From Escherichia coli (GTDB lineage: Bacteria > Pseudomonadota > Gammaproteobacteria > Enterobacterales > Enterobacteriaceae), in NCBI RefSeq assembly GCF_003334385.1, contig NZ_QOWN01000006.1: a stretch of 64,000 nucleotides of DNA; one strand, 5' to 3'. The position numbers were made by a program, and so were the translations under genes. Positions within the stretch are counted from its first letter, which is position 1. Each line of letters starts with the position of its first letter. Of the stretch, positions 15,241 through 63,170 are shown one piece after another. The notes beneath the pieces are model-generated. The model saw only the letters and a program-made list of their open reading frames with translations, had not been told where the DNA came from and did no database searches.

Positions 15241-15291
15241 CGACACTGCTTATTGCTTTGATTTTATTCTTATCTTTCCCATGGTACCCGG

Positions 15292-15378
15292 AGCGGGACT
15301 TGAACCCGCACAGCGCGAACGCCGAGGGATTTTAAATCCCTTGTGTCTACCGATTCCACCATCCGGGCTCGGGAAGAA
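15292..15378 (-). tRNA. leuZ: tRNA-Leu (87 nt)
   Basis: Reverse complement matches E. coli leuZ tRNA sequence as recalled (GCCCGGATGGTGGAATCGGTAGACACAAGGGATTTAAAATCCC...CCA). Confidence 0.95.
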
Positions 15379-15390
15379 AGTGGAGGCGCG

Positions 15391-15464
15391 TTCCGGAGTC
15401 GAACCGGACTAGACGGATTTGCAATCCGCTACATAACCGCTTTGTTAACGCGCCAAATTCTTCA
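15391..15464 (-). tRNA. cysT: tRNA-Cys (GCA), 74 nt
   Basis: Reverse complement matches E. coli cysT (GGCGCGTTAACAAAGCGGTTATGTAGCGGATTGCAAATCCG...). Confidence 0.95.
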
Positions 15465-15507
15465 GGCCTTTCAGCCAGACATCCGCTTGACGCCGATGTC
15501 TTTTAAA

Positions 15508-15584
<77 letters not shown>

Positions 15585-25376: not shown

Positions 25377-25405
25377 AGAAAAAACCCCGCCGGTGGCGGG
25401 GAAGC
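25377..25405 (-). terminator. fliC intrinsic terminator (CCCCGCC-ACCG-GCGGGG followed by T6)
   Basis: Minus-strand GC-rich hairpin followed by TTTTTTCTG. Confidence 0.8.
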
Positions 25406-25419
25406 ACGTTGCTGACAAA

Positions 25420-25545
<126 letters not shown>

Positions 25546-25575
25546 CGTCAGTCTCAGTTAATCAGGTTAGGACGA

Positions 25576-27288
25576 TTAACCCTGCAGCAGAGACAGAACC
25601 TGCTGCGGTACCTGGTTAGCTTTTGCCAGCACGGAGTTACCTGCCTGCTGAATAATCTGCGCTTTCGACATGTTGGACACTTCGGTCGCATAGTCGGCGT
25701 CCTGAATACGGGACTGCGCTTCGGACAGGTTGGTAGTGGTGTTGTTCAGGTTGGTGACTGCGGAATCCAGACGGTTCTGCACGGCACCCAGGGAAGAACG
25801 GAATTTGTCTACGGATGCGATAGCATCGTCCAGCGCTTTCAGCGGATCCGTGGTCGCTTCAGATTTACCTGTAGCTTCAGTGGTCAGAGAGCCGTCAGCC
25901 GCTTTATACAGAGCCGCGCCGTCATCATCCAGAATATTGCCGTTAGCAAATTCGTGATAAGTTTCTGTGACAGTCTTGTTGGCCGCAGTCGTCAGTTCAC
26001 CCTCAGCACCAATATTTACGGTCGCTCCACCTGTAGTAGCAGTTACTGCACCATCAGCGGCAACGTCATAAGACTGTGCGCCGTTAGCTACGGTATAAGC
26101 CTGACCGGTTAACGCAGTGTTCATATCTTCGGCGGATACCGTCGCGCCCTTAATATCCACATTGTTGCTAACCTGGGTGAAGTCAACGGTCATGCCGCTG
26201 CCGAAGGTAATCTTCGCATCAACTGCATCATGACCATTCGCACCGTTGAAAATACCGTCCAACGTTGCCGCGGCTGGGCCGCCGGCCTGGTTTTTCGTCA
26301 GGTTACCGTCAGCACCAATGTATAAAGCATCGCCATTAGTATCCGTCAGGGTACCATCGCTGGCAATTTTAACTTCCTGAGCGCTACCACCGATGGAGAT
26401 CTGAGCCGTGTTATCGCCGTTTGCTGCATAGGCTTTCAGAACATCAGCAACTTTAGTTGAGCCCGCAGTACCATCACCATTAGTAAGTGCGGTTGCGTCA
26501 AATGAATAAGACTTGCTGGTTGCGTTGTAGGTATATGCAGTAGAAGCCGCTACGCCTAACCCATTGTTTGTGCCAGCATAACCGCTAATAGTGCTGCCGC
26601 CACTAACGCTAGCCAGCACATCGGTAGCTGTTGCTGCATTAAAGGTAGTAACAGTAGATTTAGTCCAGGTGCTATTGCCACTGACAACTGCACTTTGGGA
26701 GAAGCCCGCAGCGGTCAGATCTGCTTCAGTGGCTTTTGCATTATCAACAGCGCCTTTACCGTTGACGTTGAAGCTGGTCAGCTTCAGTGTAGAAGAGTCG
26801 ATTTTTTTCAGGTCAATCGTGATGGTTTCACCATCATTTGCGCCCACCTGAATTTTCATTGAACCGTCTTTGGACAACACATTCACGCCATTGAACTGGG
26901 TCTGACCAGATACGCGGTCAATTTCATCAAGACGAGATTTGATTTCGTCCTGGATGGAGTCCAAGTCAGAATCGGAGTTAGTACCGGTAGTGGCCTGAAC
27001 CGTCAGTTCACGGATACGCTGTAAGTTGTTGTTGATTTCGGACAGCGCGCCTTCGGTGGTCTGCGCAACGGAAATACCGTCGTTGGCGTTACGTGCAGCC
27101 TGAGTCAGGCCTTTAATGTTAGAAGTAAAACGGTTAGCAATCGCCTGACCCGCGGCGTCATCCTTCGCGCTGTTAATACGCAAGCCAGAAGACAGACGCT
27201 CGATAGAACTCGACAGCGCAGACTGGTTCTTGTTGATATTATTTTGAGTGATCAGCGAGAGGCTGTTGGTATTAATGACTTGTGCCAT
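25576..27288 (-). CDS. fliC: Flagellin FliC (570 aa) with conserved termini and a variable central domain
   Basis: N-terminus MAQVINTNSLSLITQNNINKNQSALSSSIERLSSGLRINSAKDDAAGQAIANRF and C-terminus ...VLAKANQVPQQVLSLLQG are canonical; central region is Thr/Ala/Gly/Ser-rich. Confidence 0.97.
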   Translation of the reverse strand: MAQVINTNSLSLITQNNINKNQSALSSSIERLSSGLRINSAKDDAAGQAIANRFTSNIKGLTQAARNANDGISVAQTTEGALSEINNNLQRIRELTVQATTGTNSDSDLDSIQDEIKSRLDEIDRVSGQTQFNGVNVLSKDGSMKIQVGANDGETITIDLKKIDSSTLKLTSFNVNGKGAVDNAKATEADLTAAGFSQSAVVSGNSTWTKSTVTTFNAATATDVLASVSGGSTISGYAGTNNGLGVAASTAYTYNATSKSYSFDATALTNGDGTAGSTKVADVLKAYAANGDNTAQISIGGSAQEVKIASDGTLTDTNGDALYIGADGNLTKNQAGGPAAATLDGIFNGANGHDAVDAKITFGSGMTVDFTQVSNNVDIKGATVSAEDMNTALTGQAYTVANGAQSYDVAADGAVTATTGGATVNIGAEGELTTAANKTVTETYHEFANGNILDDDGAALYKAADGSLTTEATGKSEATTDPLKALDDAIASVDKFRSSLGAVQNRLDSAVTNLNNTTTNLSEAQSRIQDADYATEVSNMSKAQIIQQAGNSVLAKANQVPQQVLSLLQG

Positions 27289-47090: not shown

Positions 47091-47177
47091 AAATCCCGAC
47101 CCTGAGGGGGTCGGGATGAAACTTGCTTAAGCAAGAAGCACTTAAAAAATTCGTTACACCAGGAAATCTGATGTGTT
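47091..47177 (-). ncRNA. dsrA: DsrA small regulatory RNA (87 nt)
   Basis: Reverse complement reads AACACATCAGATTTCCTGGTGTAACGAATTTTTTAAGTGCTTCTTGCTTAAGCAAGTTTCATCCCGACCCCCTCAGGGTCGGGATTT, matching DsrA as recalled. Confidence 0.93.
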
Positions 47178-47356: not shown

Positions 47357-49881
<2,525 letters not shown>

Positions 49882-49959
49882 CCTGACGACTCCCAACCTG
49901 CTTTTTTATGATTCTGGCATAACCTGGCGATAGCGTACCGCAAAACAGCGATAATTTTA

Positions 49960-50105
49960 TAATGGTGGCATGATAAGACGCGACAGACATCGATAGTTTT
50001 ATAACGTAGGCATGATAAGACGCGATAGCGTCGCATCAGGCAATTCAGTGCAGACACTGGCACACCCGACCGGATGCGACGTGAGCGCCACATCCGGTCG
50101 GGTGT
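49960..50105. repeat. REP/BIME-type palindromic repeat cluster
   Basis: Duplicated GGCATGATAAGACGCGA units plus palindromic CCCGACCGGATGCGACGTGAGCGCCACATCCGGTCGGG. Confidence 0.75.
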
Positions 50106-50118
50106 TAATGATACCCTT

Positions 50119-50301
50119 TCAAACTTCTTCCGCAGGACGACTTCCCTCCCCCGGAACAAGCTCGGTTTCATGAAAAGCTTCCCGCTTGACCCCGTAACCG
50201 TCATACCAACGACACTCAACCATACCGCTGGAGTATCCGGTGACAATCATCCGCGGGCCGCCCTCTTTAACCGTAACTTCCTCACTAACCATAAAGCTCA
50301 T
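50119..50301 (-). CDS. yodC: Small protein YodC (60 aa)
   Basis: ORF translation matches YodC. Confidence 0.85.
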   Translation of the reverse strand: MSFMVSEEVTVKEGGPRMIVTGYSSGMVECRWYDGYGVKREAFHETELVPGEGSRPAEEV

Positions 50302-50379
50302 ACTCGCCTCCTTTTTTCGAGTGAAACTTGTTCACCTTAGTTGAAGATGGCGAATTTTGCATAATAGCCTGTGCGAGTA

Positions 50380-51297
50380 TTAATGTGCCTGACCGCGTAT
50401 TTTCGCTACGGCTTTCACTCCCAGCACCACGATGCCGCCGATGATAAATCCAAGAATCAGATTTAAAACAGTCGGTAATATCATCGCCACCACTGCACTT
50501 TGCTGCCCGGCGAAATGTTCAATGGCGTGATGCAGCGGCGCAATACCATGTACCACAATCCCGCCGCCGACGAGGAACATCGCCAGCGTGCCGACAATCG
50601 ATAACGCTTTCATCAGCCAGGGCGCGATAATCAATAATCCTTTACCTAATGCCTGCATCAGCGCGCTGGATTTTTCCGCCAGCCAATACCCCAGGTCATC
50701 AATCTTAACGATAACCCCTACCAGACCGTAGACGCCCACGGTCACTACCAACGCGATGCCTGAAAGCACCAGCACCTGATTAAGCAACGGCGCTTCGGCC
50801 ACAATCCCCAGCGTGATGGCGACGATTTCGGCAGACAATATAAAATCGGTACGAATCGCCCCTTTTATTTTGTCCTTTTCAAACTTCAGCGGATCCTGCG
50901 CCGCCAGCTTCTCCAGACGCTGCTGGCTCTGCGCCGGATCTTCTTTATGTTTACGCGCCTCCAGCATATGCAGCACTTTCTCTACTCCTTCAAAGCAGAG
51001 AAACGCGCCACCAATCATCAACAGAGGCGTAATCGCCCACGGGATAAACGCACTGATGATCAGCGCCAGCGGCACCAGAATCACTTTATTAATCAGCGAT
51101 CCTTTCGCCACGCCCCAGACCACGGGAAGTTCCCGGTTGGCCCGCACGCCTGAAACTTGTTGCGCATTGAGCGATAAGTCATCCCCTAATACACCGGCGG
51201 TTTTCTTCGCCGCCAGTTTGCCCATCACGGAGATATCGTCCAGCAGTGTGGCGATATCATCGAGCAACGTCAGTAAACTACTCCCGGCCAAAAGCAT
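50380..51297 (-). CDS. yedI: DUF808 inner membrane protein YedI (305 aa)
   Basis: ORF translation matches YedI. Confidence 0.93.
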
Positions 51298-55415: not shown

Positions 55416-55643
55416 ATTGGATGAGCCAGTCAAGACTCACTCATTTTTTGAACAAATAGATAATTTTTGCGCAACGGCAGTGAATACAGGAAAAATCGTT
55501 TTGAGCGATTTTATTTATCTTTGATATCGGCTTTATTAATTCATTTAATCAATATATTAGCACTGATTACAATTATACCTTTTTATTATTCTGTGTCATG
55601 ATGCTTACGTTATTAGCCTTTTATCGTCTTGTTTATATTTTTT

Positions 55644-55669
55644 GGGCCGGCATGATGCCGGCTTTTTTT
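55644..55669 (+). terminator. Orphan plus-strand intrinsic terminator (GGGCCGGC-ATGAT-GCCGGC followed by T7) with no upstream plus-strand gene
   Basis: GC-rich hairpin 55644-55662 followed by TTTTTTT 55663-55669; nearest upstream plus-strand CDS is absent. Confidence 0.6.
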
Positions 55670-62278: not shown

Positions 62279-62914
62279 ATGCGTCTGACAGTAAAACAGG
62301 TGACATGGCTGAAAGTTTGCCTGCATCTTGCCGGATTGTTGCCGTTTCTCTGGCTGGTCTGGGCGATCAATCACGGTGGACTGGGTGCCGATCCGGTGAA
62401 AGATATTCAGCATTTTACCGGTCGCACTGCACTGAAATTTTTGCTGGCGACCTTGTTAATCACACCTCTGGCACGCTACGCAAAACAGCCGTTATTGATA
62501 CGCACTCGCCGCCTGTTAGGCTTATGGTGCTTTGCCTGGGCGACACTGCATTTAACCAGTTACGCATTGCTGGAGCTGGGCGTGAATAATCTGGCGTTAT
62601 TAGGCAAGGAGTTAATTACCCGGCCTTATTTAACGTTAGGAATTATCAGCTGGGTTATTTTGCTTGCTTTAGCGTTTACTTCAACCCAGGCGATGCAGCG
62701 AAAACTCGGCAAGCACTGGCAACAGTTGCATAACTTCGTCTATCTTGTCGCGATCCTGGCCCCAATACATTATTTGTGGTCAGTGAAGATTATTTCACCG
62801 CAGCCACTCATCTACGCTGGGCTGGCGGTACTGCTTTTAGCCTTACGGTATAAGAAGTTGCTTTCCCTTTTTAACCGGTTACGCAAGCAGGTTCACAACA
62901 AATTATCTGTATAA
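62279..62914 (+). CDS. msrQ: Heme-binding membrane subunit MsrQ/YedZ (211 aa)
   Basis: ORF translation matches YedZ; start abuts msrP stop. Confidence 0.95.
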
Positions 62915-62947
62915 CTTCATATTGCCGACAAAGTACGCGTTATCCCT

Positions 62948-62981
62948 GCCGGATGCGGCGCGAGCGCCCTATCCGGCCTAC
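62948..62981. repeat. REP element (GCCGGATGCGGCGCGAGCGCCCTATCCGGCCTAC)
   Basis: Canonical REP consensus downstream of msrQ. Confidence 0.8.
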
Positions 62982-63170
62982 GCAGATCACATCAAGTTAT
63001 GTTTCGTTTGTCATCAACCTCAAATCATCGACATAATTTATTATATTTCAATAAGATAGATAAGCACACCTGAGAGAACTATTCTCTTGTCTCCTAAGAG
63101 TTGTTGCATTTTGTTATATGTTACAATATAACATTACACATCATATACATTAACTCTGGAGGAAACTGTT

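Follow-up and report, generated by a model that had tools for sequence, protein, structure and literature searches.

The repeat cluster analysed here is located on a 64,000-nucleotide stretch of Escherichia coli chromosomal DNA (the window, to which all coordinates refer), for which open reading frames (ORFs) and RefSeq matches gave the gene order yedP, dgcQ/yedQ, yodC, yedI, yedA. These genes are:

47375-48190, plus strand: yedP (ORFs and RefSeq matches).
48187-49881, minus strand: dgcQ (yedQ) coding sequence; its start codon is the GTG at 49879-49881, in agreement with RefSeq.
50119-50301, minus strand: yodC coding sequence, 60 aa, with the stop codon TGA at 50119-50121 (ORF list).
yedI, minus strand (ORFs and RefSeq matches).
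yedA, plus strand (ORFs and RefSeq matches).

The identical and near-identical RefSeq matches of yodC are annotated as "YodC family protein". The yodC stop and the dgcQ start are separated by a 237 bp spacer (49882-50118), and the span 49960-50105, flagged in a first-pass annotation of the window as a cluster of REP units, falls inside it. Measured from the dgcQ GTG start, the cluster lies 64-224 bp upstream, 3' of yodC and 5' of dgcQ, and because both genes lie on the minus strand it becomes the untranslated 3' tail of the yodC transcript. The first-pass annotation had assigned this and two further REP sites, near fliC and msrQ, to convergent or operon-end junctions. None of the three is convergent, the neighbouring genes being co-directional in each case: fliC(-)/fliA(-), yodC(-)/dgcQ(-) and msrQ(+)/zinT(+). 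Elsewhere in the window, Rfam matches above gathering scores included DsrA, RseX and three tRNA genes (47091-47177, minus strand; 55580-55669, plus strand; 15285-15584, minus strand).

A scan of the whole 64-kb window with a REP head/tail pattern (GCC[G/T]GATG...ATC[C/A]GGC) returned canonical REPs at 25434-25467 (plus strand, type Y), 25504-25532 (minus strand, type Z1), 50006-50041 (minus strand, type Z2) and 62948-62981 (plus strand, type Y). REP palindromes are indeed present at all three places where they had been reported, and the spans originally given (25420-25545, 49960-50105 and 62948-62981) enclose the scan matches. A search with a fixed-spacing REP consensus, allowing up to three mismatches, gave no matches because the loop lengths of REPs differ. 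Within the yodC-dgcQ spacer we distinguished the following parts:

49882-49944, minus strand: REP-free dgcQ-proximal spacer (alignments).
49945-49986, minus strand: repeat unit B, 42 bp, an orphan half-REP plus flank ATTATAAAATTATCGCTGT.
49987-50028, minus strand: repeat unit C, 42 bp, the 3' half of the Z2 REP plus AT-rich flank GTTATAAAACTATCGATGT.
50006-50041, minus strand: canonical Z2-type REP, GCCTGATGCGACGCTATCGCGTCTTATCATGCCTAC (head/tail scan).
50042-50061, minus strand: linker between the palindromes (alignment to RF02564).
50062-50105, minus strand: Y-derived palindrome, an inverted repeat with a 20-bp stem and a 4-nt loop.

The first-pass annotation had described a duplicated 17-nt unit in this cluster. 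The 17-mer GGCATGATAAGACGCGA is present in exactly two copies, at 49967-49983 and 50009-50025, where 0.02 matches would be expected by chance at up to two mismatches and no shuffle reached two. The copies are therefore real, but the size of the unit was not, since the 17-mer is the core of a 42-bp tandem duplication. The two repeat units (49945-49986 and 49987-50028) are identical at 36 of 42 positions (86%), and TRF reported a period of 42 with 1.9 copies. As a consequence of this duplication unit B holds half a REP (49967-49984, minus-strand sequence CGCGTCTTATCATGCC), and a whole REP is completed only at the yodC-proximal unit. Unit B is also found in a shorter, K-12-type allele of the spacer (alignment to K-12). 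A third, degenerate copy of the repeat at 49897-49944 was considered and rejected: this block is conserved in REP-free Citrobacter and Salmonella, which marks it as dgcQ-proximal sequence and not a REP remnant. On the other side of the cluster, the Y-derived palindrome is fully paired in yodC-sense RNA, G-U pairs included, and the foot of its stem is 13 nt after the yodC stop. Taken together, the cluster is a partly decayed BIME-2-type mosaic composed of one Y-linker-Z2 pair and an orphan Z2 half-REP, and it takes up most of the 237-bp spacer.

Units B and C differ by 14%. When the Z2 flanks were compared by hand count with those of E. whittamii, unit C resembled unit 1 (24/27) and unit B resembled unit 2 (27/28), and the characters are mixed in species with a single unit. 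The sequences hint that the 42-bp repeat may descend from an old two-unit array through an internal deletion and not from a recent local duplication.

The Z2 copy is extragenic and forms a 36-nt imperfect palindrome with internal mismatches (-14.8 kcal/mol, z = -3.7). It carries the foot tetranucleotide GTAG/CTAC, its minus-strand end reading ...ATCATGCCTAC. Used as a 44-nt query, it found at least 40 similar places in each of the 5426 complete E. coli genomes, other loci matching at 90-97% identity with a query coverage of at least 80%. The Y-like palindrome at 50062-50105 lacks GTAG/CTAC, having CCCG/CGGG as its foot, and contains no non-complementary stem base. A blastn search at E <= 1 matched it in 1407 of the 5426 genomes (median of 2 places each), essentially at this locus only. 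Its descent from a Y REP is indicated by E. albertii, E. whittamii and others, which hold recognisable Y REPs (GCCGGAT..GGCG..CGCC..ATCCGGC) at the same position; the second unit of E. whittamii and of strain E69 carries GTAG, and in RF02564 it is the Y half to which the palindrome aligns. With cmscan, the Y-linker-Z2 pair covered positions 1-77 of this Rfam model (naRNA4), including both hairpins, at a score of 43.3 bits (E about 1e-6), which is below the gathering score of 59.5. The comparison with REP/BIME consensus families that the first-pass annotation had proposed is thus favourable to its assignment: the Z2 is multi-copy in 5426 of 5426 genomes, the pair aligns to the whole of naRNA4, and the outcome that would have refuted the assignment, a lack of similarity to any REP consensus, did not arise. 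The element is a BIME-2-type unit whose Z2 is intact and whose Y has drifted out of the family.

BIME-2 elements are pairs of y and z2 that occur in tandem arrays and vary between strains in copy number and linkers (Ton-Hoang et al., PMC3333891); TnpA_REP requires GTAG and a stem mismatch (PMC3333891). A REP325 unit consists of Y and Z2 palindromes joined via a linker, l (Qian et al., PMC4550694). Like BIME-2, REP325 and naRNA4, the focal cluster has Y and Z2 in inverse orientation, joined at the ends opposite GTAG/CTAC by an l-like linker that shares GGTGCC. As is usual for BIME-2, it is intergenic, is transcribed with the upstream gene and appears to vary in copy number and linker across strains and species. 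It differs from naRNA4 and REP325 in its sub-threshold score, in its linker (50042-50061), which resembles the REP325 l linker with a 13-nt insertion, and in a Y palindrome that is devoid of GTAG/CTAC and of the stem mismatch and whose stem has been lengthened to 20 bp. Unlike a BIME-2 tandem array, it comprises one unit plus half a Z2.

The other two REP sites of the window are of different composition:

25434-25532, minus strand: textbook BIME-1 in the fliC 3' UTR, inside the sRNA FliX, made up of a Y REP (plus), a 36-nt L linker and a Z1 REP (minus).
62948-62981, plus strand: single Y REP between msrQ and zinT, starting 33 nt after the msrQ stop.

The fliC BIME-1 is followed by an intrinsic terminator (25385-25401), and this arrangement is present in 3503 of 5426 genomes. 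Both it and the focal cluster are inverse REP pairs that follow a coding sequence. In BIME-1 the GTAG/CTAC ends are connected by a conserved 36-nt L that contains a near-IHF motif, whereas the focal cluster has a Z2, is joined at the opposite ends and has no IHF-like motif. A possible role as an IHF site, which the first-pass annotation had mentioned, is not borne out at the focal cluster: no match to WATCAANNNNTTR was found there even at one mismatch, and the motif with one mismatch occurs only in the L linker of the fliC BIME-1 (25480-25492). The minus-strand stretch 25380-25575 corresponds to the K-12 stretch of the annotated sRNA FliX (b4827), with a reported mean column identity of 97%, and FliX-S includes one of the REPs of the fliC 3' UTR (Melamed et al., PMC10578931). 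Rfam family ES036 (CssrF) matched the L linker at 25470-25511 (plus strand) with 38.1 bits against a gathering score of 37.6; the family seems to describe a BIME-1 linker rather than a locus-specific gene. The fliC gene itself (25576-27288, minus strand) encodes a different flagellin, of 570 aa here versus about 498 aa in K-12 (2002110-2003606), so the window is from a strain other than K-12. The msrQ-site REP region was found in 4937 of 5426 genomes at a coverage of at least 80%. The msrQ-zinT spacer (62850-63100) occurs at a single place in nearly all E. coli genomes and is unusually divergent, with identities from 88% to 100% (92.4% for K-12 XL1-Blue); the best matches at this site are strain 2013C-4538 (100%) and O104:H4 (99.2%).

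The yodC-dgcQ spacer is polymorphic within E. coli. A 401-bp query found a single match in each of 5364 among the 5426 complete E. coli genomes, but the long allele seen here (at least 80% query coverage) was present in 1216 of the 5426 (22%). Among 40 evenly sampled matches, 30 had a spacer of 170 bp, which is 67 bp shorter than the 237 bp of the window. Carriers of this short allele include K-12 MG1655, O55:H7, O103:H2 and O104:H4. According to the alignment, the short allele is missing the Z2 head together with unit C (54 bp) and 13 bp of the Y centre. In addition, long and short alleles show about 11 differences in the ~70 bp around Y and the linker, against almost identical flanks. The comparison of copy number across strains suggested in the first-pass annotation therefore yields a long allele in 22% of genomes and a short allele in most of the others sampled. 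The statement that such repeats are typical of E. coli applies to the kind of element but not to this form of it, as K-12 and roughly three quarters of the genomes carry the decayed, shorter allele.

We also considered whether the long allele is restricted to a phylogroup. This was rejected, there being no simple clade pattern: O104:H4 and O103:H2, which we take to be phylogroup B1, carry the short allele, and at the msrQ site O104:H4 matches the window with 99.2% identity. The rearrangements seen consist of the 42-bp duplication, the 13-bp internal Y deletion, loss of the Z2 head and, in other species, two-unit arrays. The strain differences are most simply read as the usual copy-number and linker rearrangements of BIME-2, with no separate mechanism. 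The absence of a REP annotation at the K-12 yodC-dgcQ junction was dropped as evidence; it is uninformative because the NC_000913.3 record has no repeat_region even at the known fliC REPs. In E. coli AST205 an IS1A copy precedes the dgcQ start by 37 bp (near window position 49918), and a deletion has removed the REP cluster and yodC through the N-terminus of hchA. Targeting of a REP by IS1 was rejected in this case; the insertion point lies outside the REPs and the event was not REP-directed. O104:H4 2009EL-2050, which has the short spacer allele, carries a dgcQ with an internal stop that is annotated as a pseudogene.

The BIME-2-type composition and the strain distribution bear on the idea that the cluster acts at the DNA level as an architectural site, being a gyrase contact of the BIME-2 type or a cruciform contact of the HU/naRNA4 type that affects local topology. 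Its Y-l-Z2 layout is like that of REP325/naRNA4 (PMC4550694), and BIME-2 elements are enriched for gyrase cleavage, mainly at y REPs (PMC6379681). Against this, it is a single unit and not an array, its match to naRNA4 is below the Rfam gathering score, its Y has diverged from the canonical y type preferred by gyrase (PMC6379681), and the focal cluster has no IHF motif. Moreover, the element is absent from most strains, including K-12, the strain used for binding maps. We consider a role of this kind very improbable.

A scan for YodC in species-representative genomes recovered the locus across the Enterobacteriaceae. One Y-l-Z2 unit is present at the locus in E. albertii and three other Escherichia genomes, and two tandem Y-l-Z2 units are present in E. 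whittamii and in "E. coli" E69, where the spacer is 314-315 bp. The second Z2 of E. whittamii and that of E69 have each suffered an internal deletion, different in the two. The two-unit form is absent from the complete RefSeq E. coli genomes. The focal cluster has one and a half units and K-12 a remnant. At the orthologous site the naRNA4 scores ranged from 61.4 bits for E. whittamii, the only unit above the gathering score, through 55-49 (54.6 for E. albertii) down to the 43.3 of the focal cluster, and the search of the K-12 site gave no match.

The arrangement in the sister genera is different. Salmonella and Citrobacter have no REPs at the yodC 3' site; folding showed that yodC is immediately followed there by a hairpin (CGCCCGG/CCGGGCG) and a U-run, an ordinary intrinsic terminator. 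A pattern scanner had missed this terminator because A-U pairs lengthen its stem into the T-run. In Escherichia no T-run follows the hairpins, the sequence after the focal ones being GTGCCAG..., and no terminator-like site was detected in 49700-50400 or in the K-12 spacer. The Escherichia element resembles the Salmonella/Citrobacter intrinsic terminator in its position, immediately behind the yodC stop, and in forming a GC-rich hairpin on the sense transcript, but it has no U-run, is unrelated in sequence and belongs to a genome-wide repeat family. The REP element of Escherichia holds the position of the intrinsic terminator of Salmonella and Citrobacter.

One proposal is that the cluster forms part of the upstream regulatory region of dgcQ, such that long and short alleles express this cellulose-regulating cyclase differently; possible routes would be insulation from yodC read-through, a duplicated AT-rich block resembling an UP or -10 element (TATAAAA), or local supercoiling. 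The cluster is 64-224 bp upstream of the GTG start, Escherichia has no intrinsic terminator between yodC and dgcQ, and the long/short polymorphism is common. In addition, a block consisting of GGTACG, 17 nt, CAGAAT, then GGGAG and then GTG is shared throughout Escherichia and in part with Citrobacter and Salmonella (core 49905-49940, minus strand), and the AT-rich block of unit B is situated just upstream of its GGTACG, 17 nt, CAGAAT portion. We regard 49882-49944 as a candidate dgcQ promoter and 5' UTR, with a putative UP-like AT-rich stretch from unit B upstream. On the other hand, the REPs are located upstream of this cross-genus block, which does not differ between the two alleles, the duplicated AT-rich copy is ~42 bp further from any plausible promoter, and no sigma-70-like promoter was called on the minus strand of the spacer. 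A search of the literature found no TSS or expression data for dgcQ. An allele-dependent effect on dgcQ through this region is, in our view, improbable. A further proposal, which we hold to be quite improbable, is that the yodC-dgcQ BIME is a strain-variable transcriptional insulator, the REP pair having replaced a clean terminator before dgcQ. If that were true, the long/short polymorphism (about 22% versus roughly 75%) would alter the read-through or upstream context reaching dgcQ and would produce heritable strain differences in c-di-GMP and cellulose output.

The focal 186 nt folded far more stably than its shuffles (z = -6.1), and the Y-derived stem reached -41.1 kcal/mol (z = -9.0), a much greater stability than the -13 to -22 kcal/mol of the window's canonical REPs. 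The orphan half-REP alone did not fold (z = -0.5). A strong hairpin 13 nt after the yodC stop was present in all alleles examined, whichever the Escherichia species. Even the K-12 short allele forms a perfect 14-bp stem (-26.8 kcal/mol) with its foot likewise 13 nt from the yodC stop. In the Y region of 15 Escherichia alleles, 90.5% of pair cells were standard pairs, compared with 31-39% when partners were slid, and 6 of the 20 Y-stem pairs showed compensatory changes on both sides. For instance, at pair 11/44 the window has C-G where most alleles have A-U, and at pair 13/42 it has A-U in place of the G-C of most alleles. Since the structure was taken from one of the related sequences, this measure of covariation is inflated, and the figures give support, not proof, for maintenance of the hairpin.

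There are two further views of the cluster. According to one, it is a functionless remnant: a selfish REP/BIME copy would have landed after yodC in an Escherichia ancestor and would since have decayed neutrally, the hairpin surviving solely because palindromes correct themselves at the DNA level. Consistent with decay, the Z2 head and the Y core are missing from roughly three quarters of E. coli genomes, Y no longer has the GTAG/CTAC and stem mismatch needed by TnpA_REP (PMC3333891), and the naRNA4 score drops from 61 (E. whittamii) to 43 for the focal cluster, K-12 giving no match. The micro-region also shows about 11 differences between alleles whose flanks are nearly identical. Upkeep of the palindrome could be templated at the DNA level and not due to selection on the RNA. 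What speaks against neutral decay is that all Escherichia alleles examined have kept a strong hairpin at a distance of 13 nt from the yodC stop, with compensatory changes; furthermore, the ancestral terminator is gone, so that some structure at the 3' end is presumably needed. On balance, we regard the cluster being a mere remnant as fairly unlikely.

According to the view that we prefer, the focal cluster most likely provides the 3'-end hairpin of yodC mRNA, with roles in stabilisation, attenuation of read-through and possibly translational damping, and we consider this reasonably probable. The suggestion of the first-pass annotation that such repeats act as mRNA stabilisers remains the best functional reading. 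Having described the identity of the element, its anatomy, fold, family match, polymorphism and outgroup contrast from direct observation, we infer the functions at the RNA level from published REP biology. The main working part would be the pair of RNA hairpins, above all the 20-bp stem 13 nt after the yodC stop. The hairpins would block 3'-to-5' exonucleases, and in this way set and stabilise the 3' end of yodC mRNA, and they would attenuate read-through towards dgcQ without giving clean termination. REPs less than 16 nt from a stop codon are translation-linked, according to the summary in PMC12306157 of Liang, Rudd and Deutscher (2015). In common with such 3'-terminal, translation-linked REPs, the focal cluster places a stable REP-derived hairpin in the sense transcript 13 nt after the stop of the upstream ORF. 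Because the stem is within this distance of the stop codon, it may stall terminating ribosomes and so damp YodC synthesis. The literature searched yielded no data on yodC transcript 3' ends, half-life or ribosome stalling, and the supplement text of term-seq and SMRT-Cappable-seq work had no yodC entry. Two points count against this view: most E. coli live with a gutted version, which indicates that the full REP pair is dispensable, and the Z2 hairpin and the half-REP add little beyond the Y stem.

Catalogues of E. coli REP/BIME elements go back about 40 years, and differences between strains have been documented as well. The focal cluster is real, but it is an ordinary member of this known kind of element. 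It is mildly notable for the replacement of a terminator by a REP, for a common long/short polymorphism upstream of dgcQ and for its absence from K-12. The last of these has the consequence that REP catalogues and gyrase, HU and transcript maps based on K-12 are uninformative on it. As a worked example, the locus presents a REP pair in place of the Rho-independent terminator of the sister genera, a BIME at several stages of decay within one genus, and compensatory changes that keep a hairpin while the identity of the repeat erodes. Should the spacer allele affect how dgcQ is expressed, it would account for one small part of the differences between strains in cellulose and biofilm regulation.
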